Part shown: piece by piece, positions 9,745-62,509 of the stretch
Layout of the letters: the number at the start of each line of letters is the position of its first letter
Position numbering within the stretch: position 1 is the first letter of the stretch
Assembly: GCA_018668595.1 (NCBI GenBank)
Contig: JABJCP010000009.1
Coordinates: forward strand, 62,735 to 126,734
DNA: 64,000 nucleotides
DNA from: Candidatus Woesearchaeota archaeon
Lineage (GTDB): Archaea > Nanobdellota > Nanobdellia > Woesearchaeales > UBA11576
Reading direction: 5' to 3'
Made by a program: the position numbers and the translations under genes
The notes under the pieces: generated by a model
What the model was told of the DNA's origin: nothing
Databases searched by the model: none
What the model saw: the letters and a program-made list of their open reading frames with translations, nothing else

Positions 9745-10099
9745 TAGATCTATTTCAGATAAGCTTAATGAATATGTTGGAAAAGAAATTAGTGTCAAAT
9801 TAAAAGAATCGTCTGCTTATTTTCATGGTGCAGATTGTGTGTTAGATAAAATAATAGATAAGTATGATACTAAAAATTTATTTTTATCAGGAGTTACTGA
9901 TTCAAAATTATTTGGGATTCTTGAAGGCAAGGTAATTGAATTGCATTTTTTTGATCGCAGAGAAGAAGATCTTGCAGTTGAAGCAAAAGATTTGATTAAA
10001 AGATACAAGTGTGTTGAGAATTATATAATTTCTATTGAGTGTGATGGTGGTGTTATTTACAAAAATAAAAGAAATTATGAAACTGATGAGGTTGATTAA
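9737..10099 (+). CDS. Hypothetical protein with possible N-terminal Sm-like fold
   Basis: GKEISVKLKESSAYFHGADCVLDKIIDKYDTKNLFLSGV loosely fits the Sm1 pattern. Confidence 0.3.
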   Translation: MIDRSISDKLNEYVGKEISVKLKESSAYFHGADCVLDKIIDKYDTKNLFLSGVTDSKLFGILEGKVIELHFFDRREEDLAVEAKDLIKRYKCVENYIISIECDGGVIYKNKRNYETDEVD

Positions 10100-10100
10100 A

Positions 10101-10601
10101 ATGAATTCAAAACTAAGTTTAGAAGAAGTTATTGTTTATTCTAGAACTGTTAAAAAAGTTGAAACAGTAACTGTACAAAAACACATTCCCTCGTCGTGGG
10201 ATATAGCAGATAGAGAATATGGGTGGACTAGAGAAGATTATAGTGTTGCCTCGAGGCCTGAACAAAAAGTTGTGACTAGAACTATTTTTGAGTTGGTTGT
10301 TTTTAATCCTGAATCTAATAGATCTGTTCATATTTCCCAAGTAGATGGCAAAACTTATCACGAGCTGTCTGCGATTTTGAAATTAGAACTAAAAAGTCCT
10401 AGGTTGAGTATAACTCAAGCAAAATTATCTGCAAATAATAATCAATACGTAGTTAGAAATATTTTAGATCGTGCTGAAATTTTTGATGTAAAAAATAACA
10501 AACAAGTTTCAGTTATCAACGGCAAGATTTTGTACGCGGCAACTTATTCTAAACAAGAGTTGTCAAAGCATCTTCCTGCACATATTAATAATAAAATTTA
10601 A
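10101..10601 (+). CDS. Hypothetical protein
   Basis: The likely start MNSKLSLEE at 10101 follows the upstream stop, with a GAGGT SD. Confidence 0.35.
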   Translation: MNSKLSLEEVIVYSRTVKKVETVTVQKHIPSSWDIADREYGWTREDYSVASRPEQKVVTRTIFELVVFNPESNRSVHISQVDGKTYHELSAILKLELKSPRLSITQAKLSANNNQYVVRNILDRAEIFDVKNNKQVSVINGKILYAATYSKQELSKHLPAHINNKI

Positions 10602-10624
10602 AAATTTTAATGGAGGAAATTAAA

Positions 10625-12277: not shown

Positions 12278-12493
12278 ATGAAACACATCATGAGTGTAAG
12301 CCTTGATGAAGATACAATCATCAAACTTCGCGAACTGTTGAGATCAAAAAACTTCAGAAATAAAAGTCATGCAGTAGAGCAAGCTATACTGGGCATGCAT
12401 GAAAATTCTATTAATAATAAATCCGAAGATGTCACTTCTGACAATCTTAATTCAGATAATATTGATCCTAATTCTAGAGGTGATGATGAATGA
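12278..12493 (+). CDS. Small ribbon-helix-helix (CopG/Arc-like) protein; its stop overlaps the start of the first kinase gene (ATGA)
   Basis: MSVSLDEDTIIKLRELLRSKNFRNKSHAVEQAI has a beta-strand/helix/helix pattern. Confidence 0.4.
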   Translation: MKHIMSVSLDEDTIIKLRELLRSKNFRNKSHAVEQAILGMHENSINNKSEDVTSDNLNSDNIDPNSRGDDE

Positions 12494-15183: not shown

Positions 15184-15211
15184 AATTTGAAAAATATTTG
15201 AAACTAATAAA

Positions 15212-18118: not shown

Positions 18119-18132
18119 ACTAAAAACAAAAA

Positions 18133-21100: not shown

Positions 21101-21423
21101 ATTTACTTCACACTTTAACTTTTTATGAAACTAATCCTGAACAAGAACATTATCCTAAATTGCAAGTTGATCGTCATGAAGAATGGTTTGGTCTTTCAGA
21201 TGAAGAACTTTCGCGACTTAATGAAAATAAAAATCCTGCAACAGGAATAAATTATCATGATTCTGTAAAAGAACTAGTGAATCTAAGAGAGAAAAATCCG
21301 TTGTTTGTGATTGGTAAATACAAGCAGTCAATGTCTGATGAAGATTATAACTTGTTAGAAACAAGATTAAAGCGATTATTAAATTATGAAGCACCTTTTG
21401 GTGTTGTAGGTGAGGATGATTAA
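18133..21423 (+). CDS. HEAT-like repeat protein fused to a Ser/Thr protein kinase (appears active)
   Basis: LGQGAFKSVYLAE, FFALKKI, HKDLKPSNIGIDELGHIKLTDFGS and YSAPE are all present. It is a paralog of 12490..15183. Confidence 0.75.
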   Translation: MNIEKILNQVERERRKILIGDMFSSGLRVKDRHAKESFANKLHKLADIDLPKFVELYQREIKKLHRGGLNDVCWEFSVSSKIAKQLGALVKSDIDLYEQLFEETVNRTYKFPDSNRKVATGCISTLETVAEINQDRFLDIYHACLHQGNKKVKQSASYSIKPLAKLNPELFEELLTDQILNYGSQVLDWSIGFLPRLADINIDKTKYLLEHCLNSESKKLKKFAVLELNSLAVKFPESFSQHLLDVFKNKYGKEVHESASVSSLVEVAVHSNIDPVAFAISCSDFDTGEDPLGYQVRMEFISYLFKEDPRKTYDLIKYKYDLDKNLADLISRSAKDDDFGAVFKDELSRRDIDILDPGTSKIIFENLEGIIEQDSQLGVELFNFLEENGSEDVKKNLFNYVHLLIAFDLDKFESVFNHTLNQSTKETSNSIYSHLGKVAVVNTEKYVELYKKATCKTVDHSIRIDIIETLGSLAKVDPDKYIELFEENLTRDQFIRSSTFETLHNLADSRPEKYVELCDIGMSDNSSYVYRDTIRSLKPLAKIDPDKFKKYVVEGFNSRKTEVAPFAAELIPLLAPIDPKLCTELAKKALRKKDWQIKIKSADALEALADNYLENKIQHFKDDCNKFIKKYLQSKYVQTKEGEDRSEQDVTDELIELIQKKDLDYKSMLESLGYEKAENLDELVELSKIKFGSYKLIKKLGQGAFKSVYLAESTLSSGLFFALKKINPSQFGDELISQHYDSFEDWLDAELHITRLAMVDSKYVSRPQLPRKDDAGFFYLTEQPFKENLKEKLQNQKINLIESFNLIIQIVEGLEDCHNFYQGPIIHKDLKPSNIGIDELGHIKLTDFGSLETMSRDLSDGDLSNILYSAPEVLQGEKTTIKSNIWTVCNLMYNILTGDDLFAPENNSKPKSTDENRETYAKISLEKMMKTSELGVKDKVVFLRDKLCENYNQESVEYRTLTILAGVIAGGLFENPEERVYNSMTELKTDLLHTLTFYETNPEQEHYPKLQVDRHEEWFGLSDEELSRLNENKNPATGINYHDSVKELVNLREKNPLFVIGKYKQSMSDEDYNLLETRLKRLLNYEAPFGVVGEDD

Positions 21424-24189: not shown

Positions 24190-24238
24190 TGATTATTTAA
24201 TATTAAAAAATGATTAAAAAAAATTAAATAACTAAAAA

Positions 24239-26455
24239 ATGACAGAAGAAAATAAAAAAAATAACTCCAAAAAAGATTCAAGTAGAGATTTTAAACTTTC
24301 AAATCCTATTAAAAACATTCAAGATTTAAAAAATGAATCTAAAGAACTTAAATATTTAATAAAACATTTTGAAGAATTTAATCTTGATAAACCCGAATTA
24401 GAAGATTATGTTGTCAAAGTTTTAGATTCTAATGCGAGTATTTTAACTAAGAATATTTTAATAGAAGGAGATATTGATAAAAATTTAGTTGATGTAGTGA
24501 ATGATTCTAAGTTATTGTCTAATTTCTTAAAAAAGTTTGAACAATACTCTTTATTTTTTAGAGATAAGTTAGATCTACAATATGGGTTTAGAATTTCAAC
24601 AACTAAAGAATGGGGGGAATCATTAGAGCAGTTAGGTGTGGTTTTAACTGCAGATAATGAGATTAATTTTAAGAAGGAAGGATATGTGTCTAATGTTGCA
24701 CATAAACAATTTTTAGTTAATCTTAGAGATGATATTATTTCCAACCCAGAAACACTAGATTCTGATTATTATGGTTTGTTTAATGAGTTAATAAGAAAAT
24801 CTCATAATAAAGAGAGAATAGAGGACAGAGCATTACATTCTCTTTATTATTTAGGGGTAGACTTTGATTCAAAATACTCTTTGGAAAAAATTACTGATTT
24901 GTTACTTGGTTATAAAGATCATGAGATTTTAAAAAAATTTGGACAATCAGATGTCGCGTATAGTCCACCCGTGCTCGATCAAGTATTTAGGAAAATTATT
25001 AAATATATAAAACAAGGAGACTGTAATTCAATTAATGATTGTATTGAATGTGCTTCAATTAACATTTCCAACTACCAATTAATCTCAAAAATAGCAGAAG
25101 GTACTTCGAAGCGAGTCTACAAAGCTATTTACCAAAAACCAGGTTTCGATCCTATCACAGTTGCATTAAAGATCGTCAATAGAACTGATTTGCCTGATTC
25201 ATCTAATGTTGATAATCTTATTCAACGTTTTGGTTTGGAGGATATTACAAAAGGGGAAATTAATGCCATGTTGAAAACAAAAAATCCTTCTGTAGCTTCT
25301 ATTTATGATTTTGGAAAAACTAACAAAGGTAAACTGTACATTGCAGAAGAGTTTGTTGAAGGTGTTAGTTTAAGAGATGTAATAAATCAAAGACCTGTTC
25401 TTGAATCTGTTTTTAATAATTTATTTTCAATGAGTATTTCTGATGAAGAATTAGATTCAGGAAGGATAGATCTATCTGATCTTTTGCCAGATTCTTTTAA
25501 TTCGATTGAAGAAGAAAAATTAGTTGTGTCTGCGAAAGAAAAAAATTGCAGCAGATCTGAATTAAAAGATAAACTGCTTACTAAAAAACAAAATTTATAT
25601 TCTCAACGAGCATTATCCAATACTCGTTTTTCATCAAAATTTACATTTTCTAAAGAGAAATCAATTATGCGATATGTTGTCAAAGATGGAATTGTTTCTG
25701 AAGAAGACTATTTGACAAAAATTCCTGAGGATTTGGCAAGACTCAGTTTTTATTTTTCATTATTTGAAAAAATTTTAAAATCAGTCTATAAATTACATGA
25801 AGATAATTTAGTTCATTTAGATATTAAACCTGAAAATATAATTATAGGGGATGTTGTTAAATTGACTGATTTTCAAACTGCAGGTATTTTAGAAGATTTT
25901 TATGTTTCTGGTGCAAAAGGCGTGCATGGTTCAAAGCAGTATGCAGGTCCTGAATTGTTTTGGGATTCGAGTCCAGGAATACATTCAGATATTTATTCGT
26001 TAGGTATTATTTTTTATGAACTTCTTACGGGAGAACTTCCTTTTGGACCATATGATTCGAGAGAAAAAGCAAAAAAAGATCATGAATTAAATCATGAAGA
26101 TAATTTAGAAAAAGCTCTTGATAAATTAAACTTTTACAAGTCTGATGAAGTTAAATTTCTTTTTGAAAAAGTTTTGACTGATGATTCGACGAGTAGATAT
26201 GATTTAATGTCTACTTTTATTAGTCATTTTAATATGGTTCAGAATAGTTTATTTCAGGATTTTAGAGTGGATGTTGAAGGAATTCCTGTATTTGATGAAG
26301 ATTTGATAACATTATTTGAATTAAGACGTAAGTATGGTTTTGATGACCTTAATAAAATATTAAAATACACCAAGCATTTAGATATGACTGATCATGTACC
26401 TCTGCATGAGCCATCAGGAGGGGTTGATTATGGTGATTGGGATGATGAAGAATAA
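24239..26455 (+). CDS. Protein-kinase-like protein (HLDIKPEN present; DFG replaced by DFQ)
   Basis: The core reads HLDIKPENIIIGDVVKLTDFQTAG. It has an acidic C-terminus (DYGDWDDEE) and is a paralog of 15212..18118. Confidence 0.65.
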   Translation: MTEENKKNNSKKDSSRDFKLSNPIKNIQDLKNESKELKYLIKHFEEFNLDKPELEDYVVKVLDSNASILTKNILIEGDIDKNLVDVVNDSKLLSNFLKKFEQYSLFFRDKLDLQYGFRISTTKEWGESLEQLGVVLTADNEINFKKEGYVSNVAHKQFLVNLRDDIISNPETLDSDYYGLFNELIRKSHNKERIEDRALHSLYYLGVDFDSKYSLEKITDLLLGYKDHEILKKFGQSDVAYSPPVLDQVFRKIIKYIKQGDCNSINDCIECASINISNYQLISKIAEGTSKRVYKAIYQKPGFDPITVALKIVNRTDLPDSSNVDNLIQRFGLEDITKGEINAMLKTKNPSVASIYDFGKTNKGKLYIAEEFVEGVSLRDVINQRPVLESVFNNLFSMSISDEELDSGRIDLSDLLPDSFNSIEEEKLVVSAKEKNCSRSELKDKLLTKKQNLYSQRALSNTRFSSKFTFSKEKSIMRYVVKDGIVSEEDYLTKIPEDLARLSFYFSLFEKILKSVYKLHEDNLVHLDIKPENIIIGDVVKLTDFQTAGILEDFYVSGAKGVHGSKQYAGPELFWDSSPGIHSDIYSLGIIFYELLTGELPFGPYDSREKAKKDHELNHEDNLEKALDKLNFYKSDEVKFLFEKVLTDDSTSRYDLMSTFISHFNMVQNSLFQDFRVDVEGIPVFDEDLITLFELRRKYGFDDLNKILKYTKHLDMTDHVPLHEPSGGVDYGDWDDEE

Positions 26456-49520: not shown

Positions 49521-49563
49521 CTCACTAAGAATTTGATTTTTTTCATTTTGAGGATTGACTAGA

Positions 49564-50253
49564 ATGGATAAGATAAAAAACAAATTGAAACAGGATCTTG
49601 ATAAAAAAAATAGGAGACATAATAGAAAAGCAAAACGTATGTCGACCAATATTTTATCAAAATTAAAAACAACAATACCTCCTCATAGAGAAATAACTAA
49701 TAAAAGTTCAAGAAGAATTATTGATGCGCTTAAAGAACAGTATAAACAGTATAATCAAGCAATTCTTGATGTTGGAGAAATTAGGGACGAGTATCAATTG
49801 CTTGTTAATGATGAGAGTGTTAGAAATCCATTTATTGTAAGTTCTGGTCTTGTAGATATAATAAGAAATGAAACTAAAAATTTAAATTCAAATGAAAAAA
49901 AAGCAAGACGCATTTATGATTGGATTGAAAAAAACATAGAGTATGGTAAAGGATTAAAAAAATATAGTAATTCTGAAGAAGTAATTAATCAGCGTCGGGG
50001 TGTTTGTGGTGAAATGGCTTTTGTATACGTCACAATGGCAAGATGCATTGGTTTAAAGTCTAGTTATGTTAGTGTAAGAAGAGATTATAGTGGAAAAAAA
50101 GTTCATCATGCTTGTGCTGTTGTGAGAACAGAAAGAGGTAATATTTTTGTTGATCCTGCATATCACACATATGATGTGAAACACAAGGATTACGAAGTAC
50201 TTAATGATGTTGAAGTTTTAGAAAGATTTAATCAATGGAGGGGAAGAGAATAA
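49564..50253 (+). CDS. Transglutaminase-like cysteine protease domain protein with N-terminal motif MDKIKNKLKQ
   Basis: The catalytic Cys motif is RRGVCGEMAFVYVTMARCIGL. The His/Asp part is HHACAVVRTERGNIFVDPAYH. Confidence 0.55.
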   Translation: MDKIKNKLKQDLDKKNRRHNRKAKRMSTNILSKLKTTIPPHREITNKSSRRIIDALKEQYKQYNQAILDVGEIRDEYQLLVNDESVRNPFIVSSGLVDIIRNETKNLNSNEKKARRIYDWIEKNIEYGKGLKKYSNSEEVINQRRGVCGEMAFVYVTMARCIGLKSSYVSVRRDYSGKKVHHACAVVRTERGNIFVDPAYHTYDVKHKDYEVLNDVEVLERFNQWRGRE

Positions 50254-51720: not shown

Positions 51721-52770
51721 ATGGATGCATATTGTAAATATAATGGAGTTTTAAAAAAAACAATAGGCATTATTGATAATTATTATGAAAATAATAAACA
51801 ACTAGAGTCTCGAGTTAAAGAGTTAGAAAAAAAATTAGACAGAAATAATGTTGCGTTAACATCGGATCAAGATCATGCAAATCCTACTAAGGTTCATTTA
51901 TCTACTAAATTATTTTTGATTTCTGCAGTAGTAGTAGTTTTATCCGCTGGAGGGTATGTAGCACATTCTGCATATAATGAGTTTTTAGAGTCGCAAGCAT
52001 CTGAGAAAACTTTAACAGAAGAATCAATTAATTTTAATTCAACAGAATATTCAACTTGGTTTTCGCAAATAAAAAATATTTTAGAACCAACTAATCTCCA
52101 AGACGAATCTTCTTCTAAAAATAAAACTAAGATTACTCCAACCTATACTTCTGATCGACCACTGCCGGTTCTTGTTAAACCCCCTGCAAAACCACTTGCT
52201 GTTCTTGAACAAGAAAACAATACAAAACCACTTAATGTTTCTGAAAAAGAAAACCATTCTCATAAAAATAAATCAACTAATAATTATCCAAAAAAGTTTG
52301 ATAAATCAGTTATCAAACAAAAACAATCCAAGACTAAAAAAATAGTGACTTATTCTTCTAACGAAAAACACATAGAATCTCTTATTGGTAGATTCTTTAA
52401 AGATGTTGAAAACAGGAATTTCAAAGCAACTAGTGATTATTTTTCTTGTGTGAGAAAGAGAGGTGCGGATTATAATTTTCCTGAACGGTTAGTTAAACGA
52501 TTTGATAATGAAGATGAACTTTATTTTTACAAAAGAGCAATTGTGCGCAATGTCGATGAAGAACATAATAGAAATCCTTATGTTAGTGGCAAAATTTACA
52601 ATGCTAAATTAAAAGTACAATTAACATCGTCAAATGATTCTTATTATCATGAATCTCTTGGTTGGATTTTTGCAAATTGTAAAAATCAACAAGAAAAACC
52701 AAAAGAAGGAGATTGTAAATTATTGGTTTACAAAAGTTACTTGACTAATTGTCCTGAGTTTACTTTTTAA
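51721..52770 (+). CDS. Hypothetical membrane-anchored protein
   Basis: It has one TM segment (LFLISAVVVVLSAGGYVAH). Confidence 0.35.
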   Translation: MDAYCKYNGVLKKTIGIIDNYYENNKQLESRVKELEKKLDRNNVALTSDQDHANPTKVHLSTKLFLISAVVVVLSAGGYVAHSAYNEFLESQASEKTLTEESINFNSTEYSTWFSQIKNILEPTNLQDESSSKNKTKITPTYTSDRPLPVLVKPPAKPLAVLEQENNTKPLNVSEKENHSHKNKSTNNYPKKFDKSVIKQKQSKTKKIVTYSSNEKHIESLIGRFFKDVENRNFKATSDYFSCVRKRGADYNFPERLVKRFDNEDELYFYKRAIVRNVDEEHNRNPYVSGKIYNAKLKVQLTSSNDSYYHESLGWIFANCKNQQEKPKEGDCKLLVYKSYLTNCPEFTF

Positions 52771-52790
52771 AAATTTAAGGAGATAAAAAA

Positions 52791-54095
52791 ATGAATATTC
52801 CAAAAACAATTTTAGAGGATTTTAAACTTTGTGGAGAACCTTTTATTATTCGCTCTAATAGAATTTATACTTTAGAGTCTGCTCAAGGAGTATTTGACAA
52901 CAATGATTTTATTCAGTTTCTCGACAAAAAATATCCTTTGGAGAAATCTTTGTTAATTTCCAATTTAGAAAATCGTTATTTTTCTTTAAATGAAAAATAC
53001 ATTAATAGTTATTTGCAACACATCATTAAAAGAGATTATGTGAGTAAAGTAGAATCATCTCACGCAGCGTTGATTTCGCAGCACAATATTTATGAGCAAA
53101 ATAAATTATCTTCTGTTGAACATTTTATCAGATCGCAGGTTGTTCCACAATACGCAGAACTTGCTAAAGATTTTTTCCAGGTTAATTCAGATGTTCCTTC
53201 AAAGCCTAAAAAAATAAAAACTGTTAGTTCTGAAACATTTGATCCTGATATGTTTCGTTTTCCAGATATTTCTGATCTCTATTCAGAAAAAAGCATTCTT
53301 GAATCTGTGATGGGTTCATTTGTTAATTCAGATTTTATTTTTACTCTTGGTGGAAGATGCTATGTTTCGTCTACTTATGATAATTCTCCTTCAGAATTAG
53401 TAAAAATAAACAATAAAGTTCATTCATTAAAATATTTAAGTTCACTTAGTAATCTTGATAAGAATTATAAAACTGCAATAATCAGAAAGTTAAATTCTGT
53501 TGCAAAAAATCATGGAGAACAACTTATTCCTAAGATTCAAAAAAATTTAGATCAAATAAAAAATCTTGAATCTGCATTTGAGGTTCAAGATAAAACTGAT
53601 TTTGGTTCAATTGGTTACCAAAAAGTTAATAATGATAAATATAGAATTTACATTAATATAGTCCCTTTTATTGCTAAAATGAGGGGTAAATTTTTTCATT
53701 TTATAAAAACTAAAGTTGGAACTGATTTTTTAATTAAAAATAATTCTTTAGAAATTTTATCTGCACCTGTAGTTATTGAAAAAGAGCGCTATTATCATCC
53801 TTTTGTTAGTTCTAGTAATAGTATGTGTTATGGAGGTAATAAACGTTGGAAATTTACAGGTGTTGAGTTTTGTAAAAAGTATCATTTAGACTCAAAAGAA
53901 AATAGGCAAATTGCAGGTTATAAAGTCGCAGCAGTTTTGGCTGAAGGGTGGAAAGTTATTCATAGAGGGTATTTGAAATCAAATTCTCCAGATACTTATC
54001 ATCCCATATCTCATTTTCAAAATCGTGAAGTTTCAAAGCAAGCGGCAGATAATTTAGTAAACAGTGGTTTGAAACTTTATGTTCAGGATGAGTGA
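52791..54095 (+). CDS. E2/UBC-like protein, paralog 1, with a long N-terminal domain
   Basis: The C-terminal motif YYHPFVSSSNSMCYGG has the same H-P-x-[VI]-x5-[IM]-C spacing as the UBC active site HPNI-x5-IC. It is paralogous to 58413..59702. Confidence 0.45.
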   Translation: MNIPKTILEDFKLCGEPFIIRSNRIYTLESAQGVFDNNDFIQFLDKKYPLEKSLLISNLENRYFSLNEKYINSYLQHIIKRDYVSKVESSHAALISQHNIYEQNKLSSVEHFIRSQVVPQYAELAKDFFQVNSDVPSKPKKIKTVSSETFDPDMFRFPDISDLYSEKSILESVMGSFVNSDFIFTLGGRCYVSSTYDNSPSELVKINNKVHSLKYLSSLSNLDKNYKTAIIRKLNSVAKNHGEQLIPKIQKNLDQIKNLESAFEVQDKTDFGSIGYQKVNNDKYRIYINIVPFIAKMRGKFFHFIKTKVGTDFLIKNNSLEILSAPVVIEKERYYHPFVSSSNSMCYGGNKRWKFTGVEFCKKYHLDSKENRQIAGYKVAAVLAEGWKVIHRGYLKSNSPDTYHPISHFQNREVSKQAADNLVNSGLKLYVQDE

Positions 54096-54206
54096 GACAG
54101 TCTTATTAATCTTAATCACATCGTCGGAACTCTTTCGGTTTTTTCTACAAAACTCTTATTAAATAAATCTTCATAAAATCATTTAATAAAACAGGGGGCT
54201 AACAAA

Positions 54207-54626
54207 ATGAGCTTACTATATTTAAGATTAGACGCATCTTTTGCAGAGACTACAACTCTTGTGAAAAGAATTCCAGAATCAAAGCTTGACGAAACAATAG
54301 AGTCTCTTATTTTGTACATGTGTGATACTTCTCCAGATGTTCTTAATCCAGAACTAATAGATCATGCGAATAGTTGTTATTCTTTTAAAGAAGTTAGGTT
54401 GGCACAAAATATAGAAGATAGTATTGAAACAATTCAAGAAGACAACCCCGCATTTGTTTCGCCTTTAAAATTATATTCTCTTGTTGGGGATATTCCTGTT
54501 ATTATGGCATCTCACAAAACATTAGCAAATAAGTCTCTTGCAGAATATAAAAATAAAATCATAACAACAAAAAAATTAGATAATGAATCTTACAAAATAA
54601 TTGATTTGATATTAAAAACTGTTTAA
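54207..54626 (+). CDS. Ubl-like small protein, divergent copy with no C-terminal GG
   Basis: MSLLYLRLDASF...YMCDTSPDVLNPEL...SCYSFKEV aligns with the other small paralogs. Confidence 0.4.
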   Translation: MSLLYLRLDASFAETTTLVKRIPESKLDETIESLILYMCDTSPDVLNPELIDHANSCYSFKEVRLAQNIEDSIETIQEDNPAFVSPLKLYSLVGDIPVIMASHKTLANKSLAEYKNKIITTKKLDNESYKIIDLILKTV

Positions 54627-54638
54627 GGTGGTTGGAAA

Positions 54639-55709
54639 ATGAATGAAATTAAAAAACTTGAAACTGTAATTGGCACAGAAGATGTTAAACTTAATGAAGA
54701 ATCTGTAATTGAAGATTTATTCGAACAGACAGGTAATTTTTTTAATGATGTGTTTATTAAAAGTAGGGTTGGGCCAAATACTAAATTAAATCATAAAAAA
54801 ATATCATCAAATAAATATTCTATTTCGATAGATTTAGAAGATTATATTCTTAAGAAGAATGATAGATATTTTAAGTTTGATAAAGTGACAATTGGCTTAG
54901 ATATTTTATTTGATAAAGAGTCAATTCAATTTTTAAGAGCTACTAAAATTAAATTAGGAAAAAAATATGATCATCCTTTTGTATTTAATGATAATTCTAT
55001 TTGTTATGGGGGTGGCTTAAGGTGGAGACTTGTTGGTGTTGATTTTGGAAAAAAATATTCTATTAAAACAGATGAAGAAAAAAATAATGCTGCTTGGAAA
55101 ACCTGTCTTGTTTTAACAGAAGGTGCTAAGGTGCTACACGAAGTACATGGTGATCAAGTCATACCTGTTAATAATTTAATGAATAGATTTTCTGATAGAG
55201 AAATATGTAAAAACAAAGCAGAATTATCTGGTTTAATTATTTATGGTGCTGAATCATCAACTAAAAAAACTCAGGAGTTACCTAACTCTAGTAATTTATA
55301 TATTAGATTGGACGGAGCTTTTGCAAACAAAGTTATTCTTGCAAAACGAGTTCCTGAAACAATTTTATCAGAGCCGTTGGATGAGGTTATTAGGTATATG
55401 TGTAATCCGACTTCGGATGAATTGAATGAAGAGCTCGAGGATAATCCTAGTAGTTGTTATACTGAACAAGAAGTTAGCACTGCGAAATTATTTCAAGAAG
55501 CATTTGATGAAGGAATTAATTCTCCGAATAAATCATTCGAGGTTCAGGCAATTAGTGTCGACGGAAATTCGCTGATTTATCTTGGCAGAGATGCTGATTT
55601 GAAAACTGTAACTCTCGATTCTAAACGTAGTGAAATTCTTATGGAAGAACATATCGATGAAGGAAATTATAATTTGATTGATCTTAAAGGAACTTATGTT
55701 AGTTGTTAA
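54639..55709 (+). CDS. Fusion protein with an E2/UBC-like core followed by a C-terminal Ubl-like domain
   Basis: The N-terminal part carries KYDHPFVFNDNSICYGGGLRWRLVGVDFGKKY. The C-terminal part (NLYIRLDGAFANKVILAKRVPET...) is about 80% identical to the free Ubl paralogs and ends ...DLKGTYVSC. Confidence 0.45.
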   Translation: MNEIKKLETVIGTEDVKLNEESVIEDLFEQTGNFFNDVFIKSRVGPNTKLNHKKISSNKYSISIDLEDYILKKNDRYFKFDKVTIGLDILFDKESIQFLRATKIKLGKKYDHPFVFNDNSICYGGGLRWRLVGVDFGKKYSIKTDEEKNNAAWKTCLVLTEGAKVLHEVHGDQVIPVNNLMNRFSDREICKNKAELSGLIIYGAESSTKKTQELPNSSNLYIRLDGAFANKVILAKRVPETILSEPLDEVIRYMCNPTSDELNEELEDNPSSCYTEQEVSTAKLFQEAFDEGINSPNKSFEVQAISVDGNSLIYLGRDADLKTVTLDSKRSEILMEEHIDEGNYNLIDLKGTYVSC

Positions 55710-55713
55710 TAAA

Positions 55714-56643
55714 ATGACTCGCGCTGCTATTTTAATCGGATCGTTGGAAAGTTTTCAAAAAGAGGAGTTTGCAGATCCTATGAAAGAATCTTTTGCAAAG
55801 ATTGGACTCGATTCAATTATTGTACCCTTAAATAAAATAGAAGAGTTAAATAAAGTAGATATTGTTTATACTCTGCCTCATAGTATTCAGGTTGATCTTT
55901 CGTTCTTAGATGAAAAAAATATTCCTATTATTAATTCGCATAGGTCTCATTCGCTTTCTAAAAATAAAATGGAAAGTAGTGATGTATTTATCAAAAATAA
56001 TATTCCAACTCCGGATACTATAACAACAGATTCTCAAGATGAATTAATTAATTTCATAAATAAACACAATAAAATTATTTTGAAGCAACCTGATATTTGT
56101 GCAGGCTATGGGCACATGATTGTTGAAAAAATCAATAACAATTATTTTGCATGGAATAATGATTCAAAAGGCGAGTTTGATTTTTCAAATCCTAATTTTG
56201 TTAAAGCAAATAAACGAGTTTTTGCACAGCCGTATTATGCACAAGATTTTATTTCTGATTTTAATCCTGATAATATTGTGTCTGTTTATAGAGCATATGT
56301 TATCGGAAATAATGTTCCTATGGCAACTGCAAGAGTTGGTAAAGATCAGCCCATTGTTAATGTTGCAAGGGGTGCACATTATGAATTTGTTACTCCTGAT
56401 AAAAAAATGAAAGAAATTGCATTAAAGACTGCAGATAGTATTGGTTTTGAAGTTGGAGTTGTTGATTTATTAAAAGATAAAAATCAAAATTATTTTGTTA
56501 TTGAATGCGATTGCGATGGTCTTACATTAGTTGTTTGTAGAAAGTTTAGAAAATTGAAAGAGTTTGAAGATAAATATGATTTTGATCAGCACATTGGCAG
56601 AAGATTAATTGAAATTGTAAATGGAGAATCTTATAGAACTTGA
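55714..56643 (+). CDS. ATP-grasp ligase (RimK-like)
   Basis: ILKQPDICAGYGHMIV fits vvKP..GS.G.GV. YRAYVIGNNVPMATARVGKDQPIVNVARGA fits the RimK D.Rv.vvG...a..R......tN...Gg pattern. EVGVVDLL...YFVIECD is also present. Confidence 0.55.
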   Translation: MTRAAILIGSLESFQKEEFADPMKESFAKIGLDSIIVPLNKIEELNKVDIVYTLPHSIQVDLSFLDEKNIPIINSHRSHSLSKNKMESSDVFIKNNIPTPDTITTDSQDELINFINKHNKIILKQPDICAGYGHMIVEKINNNYFAWNNDSKGEFDFSNPNFVKANKRVFAQPYYAQDFISDFNPDNIVSVYRAYVIGNNVPMATARVGKDQPIVNVARGAHYEFVTPDKKMKEIALKTADSIGFEVGVVDLLKDKNQNYFVIECDCDGLTLVVCRKFRKLKEFEDKYDFDQHIGRRLIEIVNGESYRT

Positions 56644-56650
56644 TTATTTC

Positions 56651-56779
56651 CTCGTCGGAACTCTTCCGCTTTTTAACATACAACCCTTATTAAATTCAAT
56701 ATTGCGTTTATATTTGTTTAGTGGGAGAACTTAAATTAAAAAGTAAAAATACATCTAAACTAGATTGAGATATACAAAA
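56651..56779 (+). promoter_or_regulatory. Conserved ~130-bp promoter/5'-leader module (copy 1) upstream of a Ubl gene, with three palindromes
   Basis: It contains CGGAActcTTCCG and TTTAGtgggagaaCtTAAA (imperfect in this copy), then CATCTAaacTAGATt immediately 5' of the start codon. Confidence 0.45.
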
Positions 56780-57205
56780 ATGAAAAATTTATACATTAGA
56801 TTAGACGGAGCTTTTGCAGATAAAGGCGTTCTTGCAAAAAAAGTTAGTGAGAATTTACTTTTAGAAACATTAGATACTGTTATTATGTGTATGTGTGACT
56901 CTACTCCTGATGAGTTTAATCATGAATTAGCTGAGAATCCTGGTAGTTGTTATACTGCGCAGGAAGTTAGAAAAGCCGAACTTATTGAAGAAGCACTAGA
57001 CGATGGACTTAATTATTGTATTACTGTTAAGGTTGATGCGCTTAGTGTAGGCGGAAATTCTTTAGTAGAACTTGGAAGAAATGGTGAACTAAGAACTGCT
57101 ACAATTGCCGATAAGAAAAATGAAATTCTTAGAAAACTTGATCTTGATGGTAAACAATATTATATTGTAGATCTTAAGATGTCTTATTTATGCCCTGGGG
57201 GTTAG
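56780..57205 (+). CDS. Ubl-like small protein ending in a free Gly-Gly (…YLCPGG*)
   Basis: It begins MKNLYIRLDGAFADKGVLAKKV and ends at stop TAG directly after GG. The start at 56780 was chosen by alignment with the paralogs; the track used an upstream TTG. Confidence 0.5.
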   Translation: MKNLYIRLDGAFADKGVLAKKVSENLLLETLDTVIMCMCDSTPDEFNHELAENPGSCYTAQEVRKAELIEEALDDGLNYCITVKVDALSVGGNSLVELGRNGELRTATIADKKNEILRKLDLDGKQYYIVDLKMSYLCPGG

Positions 57206-57216
57206 ATTCAAGTATC

Positions 57217-57350
57217 TCCTCGGAATCCTTCCGAATTTTAACACGTAATCATTATTAAATTCAATATTGATTTTATACTTATTTAGGGGGAAAACCTAAA
57301 TTATATGTAAAAAATAAAAATACATCTAAACTAGATGGATGCATATGAAA
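57217..57350 (+). promoter_or_regulatory. Promoter/5'-leader module, copy 2
   Basis: It contains CGGAAtccTTCCG, TTTAGGgggaaaaCCTAAA and CATCTAaacTAGATG (57323..57337). Confidence 0.45.
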
Positions 57351-57803
57351 ATGGAAAATTTATACATTAGATTAGACGGAACATTTGCAGATAAAGTTGT
57401 TTTTGCAAAACGAGTTTCTGAAACAATTTTATCAGAGCCGTTGGATGAGGTTATTAGGTATATGTGTGATTCTTCTCCTGATGATTTAAATAAAGAAATT
57501 GAAATAGATTATTGTTTTGATATGAATCAAGATTACATCAAAGACAGTGGTTATACAGCGCAGGAAGTTAATAATGCAAATATTATTGAACATTTTTTGA
57601 ATCAAGATATTAGATCGGACAATATTTGTGCAGAAATTCATGCTATTAGTAAGGATAAAAATTCGCTTGTTTATTTAGGTAAAACAAACAAGCTTAAAAA
57701 TGTTAATCTTGCTTCAAAAAAAAAATATTTGTTACAAAAAGAAAAAATAGGTGGCGAAAATTATTTCATTATTGACCTTAAGTTTAATTTGCTTTGCATG
57801 TAG
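57351..57803 (+). CDS. Ubl-like small protein with a divergent C-terminus (…LLCM*)
   Basis: It begins MENLYIRLDGTFADKVVFAKRVSETILSEPLDEVIRYMCD. The start was aligned to the paralog starts. Confidence 0.45.
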   Translation: MENLYIRLDGTFADKVVFAKRVSETILSEPLDEVIRYMCDSSPDDLNKEIEIDYCFDMNQDYIKDSGYTAQEVNNANIIEHFLNQDIRSDNICAEIHAISKDKNSLVYLGKTNKLKNVNLASKKKYLLQKEKIGGENYFIIDLKFNLLCM

Positions 57804-57842
57804 ATTGCAAGGTTTAGTATACTGCAGTTTTATTACTCTCTC

Positions 57843-57976
57843 CTCGGAACTCTTCCGCTTTTTAACACACAATCCTTATTAAATTCAATATAACATTTAT
57901 ACTTATTTAGGGGGAGAACCTAAATTATATGTAAAATAAGTAAAAATACATCTAGATTAGATGGAGGTATATAAAA
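57843..57976 (+). promoter_or_regulatory. Promoter/5'-leader module, copy 3
   Basis: It contains CGGAActcTTCCG, TTTAGGgggagaaCCTAAA and CATCTAgatTAGATG (57949..57963), followed by a GGAGG SD. Confidence 0.45.
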
Positions 57977-58411
57977 ATGGGAAATCTATACGTTAGATTG
58001 GATGGAGCTTTTGCAAACAAAGTTGTTCTTGCAAAAAAAGTTCCTGATACAAAGTTATCAGAACCGCTCGAAGATGTTATTAGGTATATGTGTGATCCAA
58101 CTCCGGACGCATTAAATGAAGCGCTTGCAGATAATCCTGGTAGTTGTTATACTGCGCAAGAAGTTAGCAATGCATCTTTGATTGAAGAAGCTTTAGAAGA
58201 TGGGCTTAATAGTGAGAATTCTTCGTTTGAAGTTCAAGCAGTTAGTCTTGACGGTAATTCAATGGTTTATCTTGGCAAGGATAATGAATTAAGAAGTGCA
58301 AATATAGCATCTAAGCAAAACGATATTCTTAGAGACGAAAATTTTGATGGAGAGGTTTACAAGCTTGTAGATCTTAAAGGAGTTTATGTTGGAGTTGGTG
58401 GTAAACTTTAA
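57977..58411 (+). CDS. Ubl-like small protein ending GG-KL (…VGVGGKL*), a precursor-like C-terminus
   Basis: It begins MGNLYVRLDGAFANKVVLAKKVPDTKLSEPLEDVIRYMCDPTPD. A GGAGG SD lies upstream. Confidence 0.5.
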   Translation: MGNLYVRLDGAFANKVVLAKKVPDTKLSEPLEDVIRYMCDPTPDALNEALADNPGSCYTAQEVSNASLIEEALEDGLNSENSSFEVQAVSLDGNSMVYLGKDNELRSANIASKQNDILRDENFDGEVYKLVDLKGVYVGVGGKL

Positions 58412-58412
58412 A

Positions 58413-59702
58413 ATGCAAAATTTAAATACTTTTTTAAATAGTTTTAAGCTCGCTGGAGAACCTTTTTTTATTAGAGGTGACAGGCTCTATACTTTAGAGC
58501 TTTCAAATGGTTTTTGTAACAGCGAGCAGTTTTTATCTTTAATGGAGCGAAAATATCCTCTAGAAAGATCAGTTGATATTAGCAATCTGGAGTATACCTC
58601 TTTTCTCAAACAAAAAAATTCAATTTTAAATTTTATGGAAAAACACATTAGAAATAATTTTATCAGTAAACTTGAAAGTTCAGAAAAAAAGGTAATTCGT
58701 GCAAGTGGTTTGTATGAACAAAATAGACTTTCTTCTATTGAACGATTTATTCGTGAAAAAATAATTCCTGAATATGCTGAAGTTGCAAAGCGTTTTTTAG
58801 ATGATAAATCAATAAAAACACCTAACCTTATAAAAAAAGTTTCAAAGGTTAAAGCAGAATCTTTTGATGTTAATAGTTTTGTTTGGCCAGGTATTGAAGA
58901 CTTAAAATCAGATATTAGTAGGTTGGATAAAATAATTGAAAAAGAAGGCGTTTTAATTGTTGGTGGTCGCTGTTATTCTGCATCTCGTTCAAAATCAAAA
59001 TCTTTATCTGATTATGTTAAAGCTGGAAGTTCTTTTTATAGTTTAGATTATATGTGTTGTGTTGATGAATTGGATAAAATTTACAAACAAGAATTAGTTA
59101 AGTTTTTTCAAGATACTTCAAATAAGCAGGGTAATATTTTAGTTCCTTTAATTAAGCAAAATAACCAAAAATTATCTAACTTAACAGATGCTGTTAATAA
59201 ATCTGTTGATCAAAAATTTGGAAATATTGGTTATAAGTGTGTTAGTGAACATAAGTATCAAATTTTTCTTAAGTTTAATCCGTTTATTATAAAAAAAGAT
59301 GATCAATACTATAAATTTCCTGAATTAAAATTAGGAACTGATTTAATTATCAAGAACAATATGCTTGAAATTGTAGCAGCACCTCAAGTTTTGGGTTCTA
59401 AACCATATCTTCATCCTTTTGTTTGGTCTGATAAACGCATTTGTTATTCTGGTGATACTAAACGTTGGCATTTTATAGGTATCGATTTTGGAAAAAAATA
59501 TCCTATAAATTCTGAACAAAATCAAAATGATGTTGCTTGGAAAGTCGCATTAGCTCTTTCAGAGGGTTTTAAGGTTATTCATAAAGGATATATTGGAAAT
59601 AAAATTATTCCTGTTAATAACTTACATTCTAGTTGTAAGTCTCGCAAAATTTCTTATTCAGAAATATCGCCCTCAAAATTAAAGGTGTATAACAATGATT
59701 AA
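58413..59702 (+). CDS. E2/UBC-like protein, paralog 2
   Basis: It carries YLHPFVWSDKRICYSGDTKRWHFIGIDFGKKY. The N-terminus MQNLNTFLNSFKLAGEPFFIRGDRLYTLE aligns with 52791 (MNIPKTILEDFKLCGEPFIIRSNRIYTLE). Confidence 0.45.
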   Translation: MQNLNTFLNSFKLAGEPFFIRGDRLYTLELSNGFCNSEQFLSLMERKYPLERSVDISNLEYTSFLKQKNSILNFMEKHIRNNFISKLESSEKKVIRASGLYEQNRLSSIERFIREKIIPEYAEVAKRFLDDKSIKTPNLIKKVSKVKAESFDVNSFVWPGIEDLKSDISRLDKIIEKEGVLIVGGRCYSASRSKSKSLSDYVKAGSSFYSLDYMCCVDELDKIYKQELVKFFQDTSNKQGNILVPLIKQNNQKLSNLTDAVNKSVDQKFGNIGYKCVSEHKYQIFLKFNPFIIKKDDQYYKFPELKLGTDLIIKNNMLEIVAAPQVLGSKPYLHPFVWSDKRICYSGDTKRWHFIGIDFGKKYPINSEQNQNDVAWKVALALSEGFKVIHKGYIGNKIIPVNNLHSSCKSRKISYSEISPSKLKVYNND

Positions 59703-60969
59703 TAAAAACAATAACAAATATGGTTCATCAAACAATAGTATAGATGAAGAAATTCAAAAACTTATAGGACCTATTAGAATTACTCGTGAAGCATTAGAAA
59801 AAGGTAAATTAATTGCAAAGCGTACTTGTGATATTGCAAAAAAATTTAATCTTGGAACTTTAGAAATTTATTTGTATAATCTTAATCCTATTGATAAACA
59901 AGAAAAAGGCGATTATGCTATTAGAGATTTGTACATTGCACATGAGCAAACTGTTTCTGCTATTAATTGCGAGGTTGGTGCTCAAGGTCAAATAATGTCC
60001 CGAGATATAGCTTATCAAGAGCATAATATGTATACTATTGGTTGGTCTCATTCTCATGGAGATCTAGGGGTTTTTGTTTCAGGAACTGATGATAATAATA
60101 CTAAAAATGTTGTCAAATTTTTAGGAATAGCGTCAGGGATTGATTTATTGGAAGAGTGTGGTTCAATTAATTATGAGAATATGGAAAACAAAATTACTTT
60201 TTTAGATGGATCGCAGTATTTTATTAGTGCAGAAACATCAAAAGATAAAGAGCTTGTTGAAGGTTTATTTGAAACTATTTTAAAATCAAATCCGTTAACA
60301 ATTCATACAAAGAAAAAAAAGTTTTTTAATTGGACTCCTAGTTTTGTTTTTAATTCTAAAGGAGATTTTCATCCTTTTATGGCATATTATTTAGATAGAA
60401 ATATGATGTTGGTTGATGGTTGTTCTTATGAAATTTTGGAGGAGAATAATGGCATATGTCTTGATCCGCAAGTTATTGATGAGGAAATAATTACTCGAGT
60501 TAGAGAACTCAACTTCATTAAAAATAAAAAAACGCCAGAAACTAAAAAAACTCAATCAAAATTGTACAATTTATTTTTTAAAAAAGCTGAAGAATTTGAC
60601 AAGAATCATGATAAACTCAAAGAGTATATTAAAAATAAACAGAATTCTAACCGTACTTCTAAACGAGAGTGGAAAAAAGAATCTGGTTTATCTAAAAACA
60701 TTCAAGAATCTGTTGTTGAAATGGGTGATCTTTTAGATCATTGTGAAAATGAGTTAGGGACAAATATTAGTGATGATGAACTTGCTAAAATAAAACAAGT
60801 TTATCTTGCAAGGCAGCAGCAGATTAAAGAAGCTCAACCATTAATAGAACAAAGAATTGATTCACTTTGTAATGAAGCTAACTCTCGTAATTATGTTAAG
60901 AACCACGGGTTGATTGATATGTATGAATCTATTTTAAAAAATTCTTTAGGAGGAGATATTGATGCCTAA
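59695..60969 (+). CDS. JAMM/JAB (MPN+) metallopeptidase
   Basis: The full JAMM motif E…HSHGDLGVFVSGTD (HxHx7Sx2D) is present. Confidence 0.6.
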   Translation: MINKNNNKYGSSNNSIDEEIQKLIGPIRITREALEKGKLIAKRTCDIAKKFNLGTLEIYLYNLNPIDKQEKGDYAIRDLYIAHEQTVSAINCEVGAQGQIMSRDIAYQEHNMYTIGWSHSHGDLGVFVSGTDDNNTKNVVKFLGIASGIDLLEECGSINYENMENKITFLDGSQYFISAETSKDKELVEGLFETILKSNPLTIHTKKKKFFNWTPSFVFNSKGDFHPFMAYYLDRNMMLVDGCSYEILEENNGICLDPQVIDEEIITRVRELNFIKNKKTPETKKTQSKLYNLFFKKAEEFDKNHDKLKEYIKNKQNSNRTSKREWKKESGLSKNIQESVVEMGDLLDHCENELGTNISDDELAKIKQVYLARQQQIKEAQPLIEQRIDSLCNEANSRNYVKNHGLIDMYESILKNSLGGDIDA

Positions 60970-62509
60970 TGAAGTTATTGCAGATATTAATAATCGTAAT
61001 CATTTAGCATGGAGTATTGATAAATCTATTAATATGGATTATTCAAAAAAATTAGCTGATTTAGAAAAAAATAAAACTGGTTTAAGTCAAGGGGTTTACG
61101 ATCAAAAGAAATTAGGTTTATTAGAAGAAAAAAAAGCAGAGTTAAGCAAGCTAGGAGAAGAAAGAATAAATTTATTAAATAATTTAAAAATAATGGTTCT
61201 TGGTTCAGGACCTCTTGCGCAATTTGTTAGCGGAGGGTTAATGGGTTTAGGTATTGGAACTATTTATGTCGTCGGTAATGAGATTGTTTCACGAAATGAT
61301 AGTTATGATTTTTTAGTAACTAAAGAATCAAATCTTGGAAAATCAAAAGTAGACGAAATTGTGGCTAGGATGAACGAAATTAATGATTATAATAATTTTG
61401 TTCCTGTTTTTTCAAGATTTAGTTCTGCTTTAACTAATTCATTTTATCCTTCGGATATGATTATTGATGCGACAAACTCGTCTGTTTCAAAAAATAAAGT
61501 TTTGAGATATTGTATTGATAACAAGATTCCTTTAATTTCTGCATCATCTAGTTTTAGAAATTCAAGAGTTTCTTCTTACAAACCAAACTCTGCACCTATT
61601 AGACTTAAAGATTCAGTTAATTTGGAAGCAGTTATTCACCAAGAACTTGATGGTCTTTCTCAAGACATTGTGAGTTCTGGAATTATTGCAGGAATTATTT
61701 TAGAGGAAGTTAGAAAGCAAAAGTTTTCTATGTCAAAAACAGATTTTCCTCTTAAAAATTTTCAAGTTGTAAATTATAATCCTTATTCTAAAACAAGAAA
61801 TAATAAGTTGAGAGATCTACCCAAATGTGCTAAAACTTATGCAAATAAACGTGTTTTAGTCGCAGGAGCAGGAGCGCTAGGTAATTTTGTTGCAATGGAA
61901 CTTGCTTTGTTAGGGGTTGGACAATTGGATATTTTAGATATGGATTCTGTTGAGGTTTCAAATCTTAATCGTCAAATTAATTTTGATAAGTCAAATATTG
62001 GTAAGGAATACAAAAAAGCAACAGTTCTTTTTGATCGTTTAAAAAAATTAAATCCATCTATTAATGGAACTGGAATAGTTGCAAAACTTGAAATGACTTC
62101 GGATAATTTGATTAAAGAAGGCAACTATGATGTTTTACTTGGTTGTTTTGATAATAAGATTGCAAGACAAACTTTAGATCATTTTGCGGAAAAATATAAT
62201 ATTCCTTATGTTGACGGAGGTTGTTCGACAAACGCAGGCCAGGTTGTTTCATTTATTCCTGGTTATAACCAGAAGGTCACTGAACAGGTTAATTTTCCAG
62301 ATCCTTCTAATAGTGGTAATCAGGTAGGTTGTGCTATTGTAGCTCAAGCTAATCCTAGTATTATTACTTCAAATGCAATTATTGGCAGTGCAACTGTTGC
62401 AGAGGCTTTAAAGATTTTATCAGGGCAAAATTATGGGGATGTTGGAGGTTCTTTTAACTATCGTAGTAATTCTCCTGACCGTATTTGGTTGGATCCTTAT
62501 GTTCCTTAA
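60959..62509 (+). CDS. E1-like (ThiF/MoeB/UBA) activating enzyme with tandem Rossmann domains (N-terminal degenerate, C-terminal active)
   Basis: The N-terminal domain reads IMVLGSGPLAQFV with no SNLNRQ. The C-terminal domain reads RVLVAGAGALGNFVAMELALLGVGQLDILDMDSVEVSNLNRQ. GGCSTNAGQV lies downstream. Confidence 0.65.
   Translation: MMPNEVIADINNRNHLAWSIDKSINMDYSKKLADLEKNKTGLSQGVYDQKKLGLLEEKKAELSKLGEERINLLNNLKIMVLGSGPLAQFVSGGLMGLGIGTIYVVGNEIVSRNDSYDFLVTKESNLGKSKVDEIVARMNEINDYNNFVPVFSRFSSALTNSFYPSDMIIDATNSSVSKNKVLRYCIDNKIPLISASSSFRNSRVSSYKPNSAPIRLKDSVNLEAVIHQELDGLSQDIVSSGIIAGIILEEVRKQKFSMSKTDFPLKNFQVVNYNPYSKTRNNKLRDLPKCAKTYANKRVLVAGAGALGNFVAMELALLGVGQLDILDMDSVEVSNLNRQINFDKSNIGKEYKKATVLFDRLKKLNPSINGTGIVAKLEMTSDNLIKEGNYDVLLGCFDNKIARQTLDHFAEKYNIPYVDGGCSTNAGQVVSFIPGYNQKVTEQVNFPDPSNSGNQVGCAIVAQANPSIITSNAIIGSATVAEALKILSGQNYGDVGGSFNYRSNSPDRIWLDPYVP

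Follow-up and report, generated by a model that had tools for sequence, protein, structure and literature searches.

Ubiquitin-like (Ubl) conjugation systems of prokaryotes, such as Bil, Bub, Cap2 and those of Caldiarchaeum and the Asgard archaea, have been used to reconstruct the origin of eukaryotic ubiquitination. A modifier and an E2-type enzyme can be joined in one chain in bacteria: in BubAB, encoded by the Type I Bub (6E.1 / DUF6527) operons, a Ubl-E2 pre-protein is cut by a JAB peptidase after a conserved glycine (PMC11601596), and polyUbl proteins fused to an E2-like domain have also been noted (PMC1779556). Here we analyze a 64-kb stretch of DNA from an uncultured DPANN archaeon, a Candidatus Woesearchaeota archaeon (contig JABJCP010000009.1, hereafter the window), in which one gene, at 54639-55709 on the + strand, encodes an E2-like core followed by a modifier-like domain. 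An earlier note on this DNA had described this gene as a single polypeptide combining the two parts, and the observation is confirmed: the fusion is a real two-domain gene. Its parts, in coordinates of the window, are the following.

54639-55709, +, fusion gene, 356 codons and a stop; E2-like core, then modifier-like domain
54696-55253, +, predicted UBC (E2) fold domain, residues ~20-205: helix 20-42, beta-meander 50-98, active-site loop, helix 145-167, short C-terminal helices
54972-55004, +, active-site motif H112-P-F-V-F-N-D-N-S-I-C122, counterpart of the classical HPN...Cys with Phe for Asn
55254-55289, +, linker, residues 206-217, SSTKKTQELPNS; without Gly-Gly; predicted local distance difference test score (pLDDT) <50 at 207-215
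55290-55706, +, modifier-like domain, residues 218-356; paralog of free small proteins; ends YVSC, without GG
55696-55709, +, decayed tail region, from the DNA alignment with the paralog at 57977-58411

The 356 codons run uninterrupted through a stop-rich genome with a G+C content (GC) of 29%, and the start ATG lies 12 nucleotides (nt) past the stop of the small-protein gene that precedes it, with a GGTGG shortly before the ATG. Gene calls on 14 contigs, from assemblies of JGI, ENA, Logan and NCBI, give the identical 356-residue protein; at five loci from independent assemblies made with different assemblers (megahit, SPAdes, and an NCBI metagenome-assembled genome) the DNA is 100% identical to the window over 8.7-16.8 kb; a sixth locus, on a JGI contig, has the exact fusion protein in the same gene order; and three NCBI protein accessions carry its exact sequence. 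These copies exclude, at the level of assemblies, the artificial joining of two genes by a frameshift, which the earlier note had named as its own refutation; nothing was found in favor of a sequencing or assembly artefact, and its probability is negligible. The only single-residue variants in the fusion's 90% cluster are Ser271Thr, on two contigs, and His112Asn, on one.

The N-terminal part had been taken to be E2-like, a reading upheld by profile alignment and a structure model, both of which point to a UBC/E2 fold with a His...Cys active-site motif. Alignment of the domains, which the note had recommended, places the E2-like part at residues ~45-205 and the modifier-like part at 218-356. 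The former aligns at 28-36% identity with the C-terminal ~190 residues of two large E2-like proteins of the same gene cluster (a and b), and Y110, H112, P113, F114, V115, C122, Y123, G125, R128 and W129 are invariant in all three. Their common motif is Y-x-HPFV-x5-(I/M)C-Y-x-G-x2-RW, the active site reading HPFVFNDNSICYGG in the fusion, HPFVSSSNSMCYGG in protein a and HPFVWSDKRICYSG in protein b; the shared motif first given as HPFV-x5-ICYGG is hence present in all three proteins, with 'ICYGG' exact only in the fusion.

When 1.84 billion representative proteins were searched exhaustively with phmmer, ~85 homologous clusters of the E2-like domain were recovered, mostly proteins of 410-450 residues with the domain at the C-terminus, and some of ~200 residues. 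Among 43 full-length family members only the His and the Cys are invariant; across 89 homologs they are conserved at 99% and 91%, respectively, and the Phe of HPF at 89%. All core positions defined by these 89 homologs are retained by the fusion (Y110, H112, P113, F114, V115, I121, C122, R128 and W129). When the 43-member profile was compared with PDB sequences, Rad6/UBE2A-type E2s made up five of the seven weak matches (E 0.5-2), and the profile alignment lays the HPFV..IC of the family (HPFVysdgsICYggn.erW) onto HPNV..IC, with H112 and C122 of the fusion falling on H78 and C88 of UBE2A/Rad6. The E2 part was modeled alone, joint MAFFT alignments of both families with the fusion having put E2 segments into modifier columns. 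For residues 1-215, AlphaFold2 with a 90-sequence alignment gave a model of pLDDT 88 and predicted TM-score (pTM) 0.82. In it, a long helix at the N-terminus is followed by a beta-meander, then by the HPF loop and Cys122, and finally by a crossover helix and short helices at the C-terminal end. The features by which the UBC superfamily is recognized, namely an alpha/beta fold and a Cys after the last strand, ~8-10 residues past the His-Pro, are found here. At E<=0.1 no Pfam family, UQ_con and Prok-E2 included, was matched by the fusion or by either large paralog, and no PADLOC model recognizes the E2-like domain. Nevertheless, the active-site profile alignment and the AlphaFold2 fold support the first domain as a divergent member of the UBC superfamily with the classical His-before-Cys geometry. 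The E2 of the fusion is a minimal core that keeps the invariant His and Cys and lacks the ~230-residue N-terminal extension of most family members. Complete stand-alone E2-like genes of 204-210 residues exist in other lineages (loci L018, L019 and L020), which argues that in this system the UBC core can serve as an E2 by itself, without the long extension.

The second part, residues 218-356, aligns end to end with four free small proteins encoded around the fusion, at identities of 62% (57977-58411), 51-53% (56780-57205 and 57345-57803) and 31-34% (54207-54626). The domain had been called a near-copy of these proteins; at 31-62% identity this was overstated, and they are better described as clear paralogs. 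The accompanying observation that the chain stops at ...VSC instead of GG is correct, the fusion ending in ...KGTYVSC. Only two of the four free paralogs have the GG end themselves (CPGG and GVGGKL), the others terminating in LLCM and KTV. Counted over the locus, three of five modifier-type units (KTV, LLCM and VSC) are without a C-terminal Gly-Gly. Judged by these endings, the conjugatable units of the locus could be 56780-57205 (CPGG) and 57977-58411 (GVGGKL) only, and the lineage seems to accumulate non-conjugatable copies.

The assignment of this small-protein family as modifiers stems from its endings and its company. Six other loci have a member beside an E2-like gene, four of them with the member immediately upstream, and these relatives mostly end in GG or in GG and a short removable tail (...DIAGG*, ...GPGGN*, ...YGGG followed by 18 residues, ...AGGGR*, ...DVGGNVNGY* and ...DVGGNY*). 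On the longer contigs JAMM and E1 genes lie near the E2-like and small-protein genes. A modifier together with E1-like, E2-like and JAB genes is found in the window and at L009, L013, L016, L017 and L019, while L015 offers just the pair, a small protein directly upstream of an E2-like gene. Because of the GG end and the conserved placement beside an E1, an E2 and a JAMM protease, the small GG-ended protein is very likely a conjugated modifier. Two other resemblances were considered and rejected. A likeness of the family to staphylococcal nuclease (E 0.0065 with a 13-sequence profile) went back to matches with engineered delta+PHS variants; the wild-type nuclease, at 12.4 bits, only matched the highest-scoring of 2000 shuffles, and hhalign gave a probability of 5%. 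Likewise, a UFM1-like '...SC' ending of the fused copy was dismissed, as the SC codons stem from a frameshift relative to the paralog and have no Gly before them.

The loss of the GG tail from the fused copy is genuine and can be followed in the DNA. Relative to the paralog at 57977-58411, the 3' end of the fused copy has a 2-nt deletion that shifts the frame to Ser-Cys-stop, and the Gly-Gly codons GGT GGT of the paralog correspond to GTT AAT in the fusion. The decayed tail overlaps a candidate ATG (55696) of the following ATP-grasp gene. Outside the tail, the ratio of nonsynonymous to synonymous substitution rates (dN/dS) is 0.41 between the fused domain and its closest paralog, and on three-point branches ~0.37 for the fused copy and ~0.46 for the GG-bearing paralog, all rough values, given that saturation of the synonymous sites is nearly reached in this 29% GC genome. 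By this measure, the fused domain outside the tail is still constrained and apparently not decaying. The linker has no glycine pair, and therefore JAMM processing of the BubAB type is not expected; an origin of the linker in the untranslated 5' leader of a free modifier gene, with its ribosome-binding site, was considered, but the alignment was no better than AT-rich sequence would be expected to give.

No other protein combining both parts was found by phmmer among the 1.84 billion representatives, so that the search for similar fusions proposed in the earlier note returned only the fusion itself. An ortholog at 50-90% identity was absent from a 5.8-billion-sequence collection, and a word-indexed homolog search with the fusion as query found the fusion alone; equivalent searches returned two proteins with the 43-sequence E2-like alignment and six with the modifier alignment, these six being window paralogs or already known. 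A scan of species-representative genomes yielded 260 pattern matches, none of which was confirmed. In the nearest relative, L009, the first E2-like gene is unfused and ends LKIY*; after it come an ATP-grasp gene, a GG modifier and another E2-like gene, and the four are orthologous, in this order, to protein a, the ATP-grasp ligase, the 57977-type modifier and protein b of the window. From this orthology it follows that local duplication gave the window lineage four additional modifier-type units as well as the fusion. As far as these gene orders and searches tell, the fusion is lineage-specific and arose in this Woesearchaeota lineage by duplication and fusion. An unfused counterpart of its E2-then-modifier order is seen at L019 (5001-6185), where a short E2-like gene is followed after ~100 nt by an unfused modifier-family gene and then by an E1, a JAMM and a second modifier-family gene; both modifier-family proteins of L019 are without a GG end. 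In the window itself, gene a and the next small-protein gene (52791-54626) share a reading frame, with 37 codons between them that include two stops, and loss of both stops would recreate a long E2-modifier fusion.

All genes of the cluster, 52791-62509, lie on the + strand, and NCBI copies of their proteins are annotated 'hypothetical protein [Candidatus Woesearchaeota archaeon]'. Besides the fusion, the cluster contains the following genes.

52791-54095, +, large E2-like protein a, 434 residues; N-terminal ~230-residue extension and UBC core
54207-54626, +, free modifier-like protein ending KTV, without GG; most divergent paralog
55696-56643, +, RimK-type ATP-grasp ligase (Pfam RimK 1.9e-12)
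56780-57205, +, free modifier ending exactly in GG (CPGG)
57345-57803, +, free modifier-like protein ending LLCM, without GG
57977-58411, +, free modifier with the ending GVGG+KL; of the paralogs, nearest to the fused domain (62%)
58386-59702, +, large E2-like protein b; likely true start ATG 58413, giving 429 residues as in the NCBI record
59695-60969, +, JAB/JAMM metalloprotease (Pfam Prok-JAB 2.4e-4); HSHx7SxxD motif intact
60959-62509, +, E1-like activating enzyme with tandem ThiF-type domains (Pfam ThiF 2.6e-59, two stretches)

The second ThiF-type domain of the E1 has, as read from its sequence, the full GxGxxG...DxDxVxxSNLxRQ motif, and the best PDB matches of the protein are the SUMO E1 UBA2 (5.6e-17), followed by ThiF and Uba1. 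The best PDB match of the JAMM protease is the Rpn11-like protein of Caldiarchaeum (E 0.0019).

The closest likeness of the fusion is to BubAB, in which modifier-type and UBC-fold domains also occupy one chain beside a JAB/JAMM peptidase and an E1-like gene. However, in BubAB the modifier precedes the E2, whereas in the Woesearchaeota protein the E2 precedes the modifier; the BubAB junction is cut at a glycine that exposes the modifier C-terminus, whereas the present linker has no glycine and the modifier no GG end; BubB has a catalytic Ser and no C-terminal helices, whereas the fusion has a Cys with the classical upstream His and predicted C-terminal helices; and the JAB and E1 of Bub are fused, whereas those of the Woesearchaeota locus are separate genes. 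No match to DUF6527 was obtained in the ten cluster proteins or in the scanned neighbors. The fusion is thus not a member of BubAB, from which it differs in order, junction, catalytic residue and E1 organization; it is a lineage-specific variant of a known theme, an E2 and a modifier in one chain. Accordingly, its description as unusual needs a qualification: Ubl-E2 fusions are known in bacteria, but the E2-then-modifier order without a GG occurs in no other protein searched.

In its gene complement the locus resembles the Bil systems (BilABCD, '6d'; PMC11601596, PMC10557695, PMC1779556), with which it shares the four parts Ubl, E2, JAB and E1, an E1 with tandem inactive and active ThiF-type domains, and the lack of a recognizable E3. 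It differs from them in its archaeal host, in the association with ATP-grasp and transglutaminase-like genes, and in its multi-copy modifiers, one of them fused to an E2. The 6d-type E2s are without the classical His upstream of the Cys (PMC1779556); in contrast, the Woesearchaeota E2-like family possesses this His and usually an N-terminal extension of ~230 residues. PADLOC gave matches to the E1 only, with E1-E2 (Cap2-type) models, and none to the E2, modifier or JAB proteins, a weak test, as the 2023 library may lack Bil models. To the classical E2s (Pfam UQ_con; Caldiarchaeum and Asgard systems, PMC5654768, PMC3082918) the domain is linked by its N-terminal helix, beta-meander, and crossover and C-terminal helices, by an HPx ~10 residues before the catalytic Cys and by a Trp after it; the best solved relative of the JAMM protease, the Caldiarchaeum Rpn11-like protein, comes from the same group of systems. 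It departs from them in having HPF for HPN, six predicted strands versus the canonical four and no UQ_con match at E<=0.1, and the locus as a whole in having no recognizable ubiquitin or RING gene. In its classical His and C-terminal helices, the E2 is closer to the eukaryotic and archaeal E2s. We found no paper describing a ubiquitin-like system of DPANN archaea or Woesearchaeota.

Non-conjugatable Ubl domains that are integral parts of larger proteins, as in Rad23, Dsk2, parkin and USP14, have the beta-grasp fold and are usually N-terminal. The fused domain is comparable to them in being a built-in modifier-type domain without a conjugatable GG, for which non-covalent binding would be expected; it differs in being C-terminal and in being modifier-like by paralogy, whereas they are beta-grasp domains. 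To our knowledge, no integral Ubl domain fused behind an E2 core has been described.

In view of the retained active site, the stand-alone short E2s, the context of the small proteins, the genuine tail loss and the constraint on the fused domain, we prefer, tentatively and at somewhat less than an even chance, a reading in which the fusion is a minimal but active E2 and the modifier domain built into it, which cannot be conjugated, has a docking or regulatory role. According to this proposal, the E1 would charge the E2 core at Cys122 with the GG modifiers that are encoded as free proteins (56780-57205 and 57977-58411). For want of C-terminal glycines that could enter the adenylation site of the E1, the fused domain itself could be neither activated nor conjugated. 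Instead, it would act in cis as a non-covalent module binding a partner that recognizes the modifier fold, candidates being the modifier-binding surface of the E1, the JAMM protease and the surface of the E2 itself. It would thereby make up for the absent N-terminal extension in recruiting or regulating the E2, its function being nearer to that of an integral non-conjugatable eukaryotic Ubl domain than to that of a modifier precursor. This docking role of the fused domain is what we infer from the comparison.

A wider claim, that an undescribed archaeal protein-conjugation system is at hand in which the fusion is an E2 using its own modifier-fold domain as an in-cis recruitment element, is unlikely to hold in all its parts together. 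These parts are a new HPF...Cys E2 family, a family of ~140-residue GG-ended modifiers that is not recognizable as Ubl by sequence, a JAMM, a compact tandem-domain E1, and ATP-grasp and transglutaminase-like enzymes as accessories. Within such a new system, the fused domain might stand in for the ubiquitin-fold domain that is absent from the short E1, or the fusion might feed tail-less modifier domains to the ATP-grasp ligase in an E1-independent route of ligation.

Several results weigh against the docking proposal. On the E2 side, five residues that are conserved in the rest of the family are changed in the fusion (P68D, P102T, G169V, Y170H and N204A), and the classical Asn of HPN is absent throughout the family, so that the catalytic chemistry may differ. 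Furthermore, the His112Asn variant alters the family-invariant His (54972-54974) on one ENA contig of 1429 nt, which is the database representative of the cluster; either a rare allele or an error of sequencing could account for it, and taken with the five substitutions it is compatible with relaxed or altered function. On the modifier side, searches of Pfam and of PDB profiles with the modifier-like part yielded no fold match, hhalign comparisons of the modifier family with ubiquitin, NEDD8, SUMO1, ThiS, MoaD and UFM1 gave probabilities below 1%, and the one AlphaFold model covering residues 218-356, built from three sequences, reached a pLDDT of only 39 and is unusable. The near-saturation of synonymous sites mentioned above belongs to the same side of the balance. 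The designation 'Ubl' adopted in the earlier note therefore stands as regards the conserved context and the GG ends and, as regards the fold, finds no support in Pfam, PDB profiles or hhalign. Bacterial modifiers have diverse N-terminal domains ahead of the beta-grasp (PMC11601603), and domains of this kind could explain the missing sequence signal.

Four other explanations of the fusion have to be weighed against its role as an active E2 with a docking domain. It could be a mimic of a charged E2 or a decoy, roles that the earlier note had suggested together with that of an adaptor, and as such would occupy the E1, the JAMM or downstream readers without transfer and serve as a constitutive regulator or inhibitor. 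The loss of the tail, by which the modifier copy cannot be activated, would suit such a protein, as would the change of five family-conserved E2 positions, including the GY motif after the crossover helix, and the existence of the His112Asn variant. Yet the His/Pro/Phe/Val/Cys/Arg/Trp core, which a pure mimic would not need, is intact in the common allele and speaks against a purely inert decoy; in addition, a real E2~modifier joins the C-terminus of the modifier to the Cys, whereas the fusion ties the modifier N-terminus to the E2 C-terminus, a different geometry, and we regard a mimic as distinctly unlikely. Another possibility is a built-in acceptor, in which lysines of the fused domain would lie near the active site and undergo self-modification or prime chains, like E2s that hold an acceptor ubiquitin. 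That the active site is retained, that the fused domain is lysine-rich and sits on a short flexible linker, and that GG-bearing donors are encoded next to it, is in keeping with this idea; but a conserved acceptor lysine was not identified, the system gives no sign of chains, and the free tail-less paralogs (54207-54626 and 57345-57803) could do the same without fusion, which leaves the acceptor with much the same low likelihood as the mimic, or a shade less.

The fusion might equally have no specific function and be a decaying duplicate, a recent by-product of local gene amplification that is heading for loss. Its restriction to one population across all databases searched, the removal of the GG tail by a frameshift, the substitutions at conserved positions, the His112Asn variant and the absence of GG from two free paralogs as well would all be expected of such a gene. 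Against this, an open frame of this length with the catalytic motif intact has persisted in a stop-rich genome, the dN/dS of ~0.4 is no higher than that of the GG-bearing paralog, and the gene is tightly packed, its ribosome-binding site and start 12 nt past the upstream stop and its end overlapping the ATP-grasp start; we therefore hold decay to be improbable. Improbable to a still higher degree is a polyprotein, in which a cut in the linker would yield two products, a short E2 and a free modifier-like protein without tail, the fusion ensuring nothing beyond co-expression. BubAB provides the precedent of a Ubl-E2 pre-protein cut by its own JAB peptidase (PMC11601596), a JAMM protease is present in the locus, and another lineage has an unfused short E2 followed by a modifier-family gene; however, the linker SSTKKTQELPNS contains neither Gly-Gly nor another known JAMM site, and a cut there would expose no conjugatable C-terminus, which is the reason for processing in BubAB.

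Some further observations concern the cluster and its surroundings. A conserved intergenic element lies 5' of every free small-protein gene (54121-54164, 56652-56786, 57217-57351 and 57841-57975); it consists of a hairpin CGGAAcTCTTCCG and a T-run, followed by TTATTAAAT...TTTATA...TTTAGGGGGAgAAC, and has no Rfam match, a search of 52700-59800 with Rfam giving none at all. Its composition suggests a terminator followed by an archaeal promoter of the TATA type, one such pair per gene. The fusion gene has no such element and is packed tightly between its neighbors.

The ATP-grasp gene is kept at the same cluster position in the nearest relative (L009 608-1534). RimK-type enzymes add residues to protein C-termini, and possible substrates of the ligase are the modifiers or the C-terminal tails that are conserved in the E2-like proteins (RIxxN / YDND). 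A transglutaminase-core gene (papain-like fold) is located a few genes 5' of the E2-like and modifier genes in the window (49555-50253) and, in the same setting, in at least two other lineages (L016 2603-3358 and L019 3713-4393, with Pfam matches in L016 and L019/L020); a partial upstream open reading frame at L018 2-295 resembles it by eye. Its product may be an unrecognized component of the system, acting as a protease or transamidase. On the contig L003, three more genes follow the E1 on the same strand (8757-11943, beyond window position 62523), with products of 507, 324 and at least 879 residues, the first two without a Pfam match; they may belong to the same system.

The GC of ~29% extends over the whole window, which elsewhere has everyday cellular genes such as those for GAPDH and adenylosuccinate synthase, and five tandem HEAT/Ser-Thr kinase genes. 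The latter adjoin one another at 12490-26455 and encode proteins of 738-1096 residues, each with a Ser/Thr protein kinase domain, one with Pfam HEAT-repeat matches and two with weak RTP1_C1 matches; such a tandem expansion is striking for a DPANN-type genome.

To the prokaryotic systems described so far, the locus adds one from DPANN archaea, with an E2 that has the classical His...Cys geometry and C-terminal helices and falls outside all curated models, with five modifier copies, three of them without a conjugatable end, and with a natural E2-modifier fusion whose order is opposite to that of BubAB. The fusion appears to be confined to one population, inside a conjugation system that is apparently undescribed and experimentally tractable. 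Should the fused domain turn out to recruit or regulate the E2, the integral ubiquitin-like domains would have a prokaryotic counterpart in it, and the effect of a modifier fold in cis on the charging and discharge of an E2 could be studied in a simple, expressible model. If the fusion is only a decaying duplicate, the locus would still show how fast modifier genes arise and are lost in an archaeon with a reduced genome.

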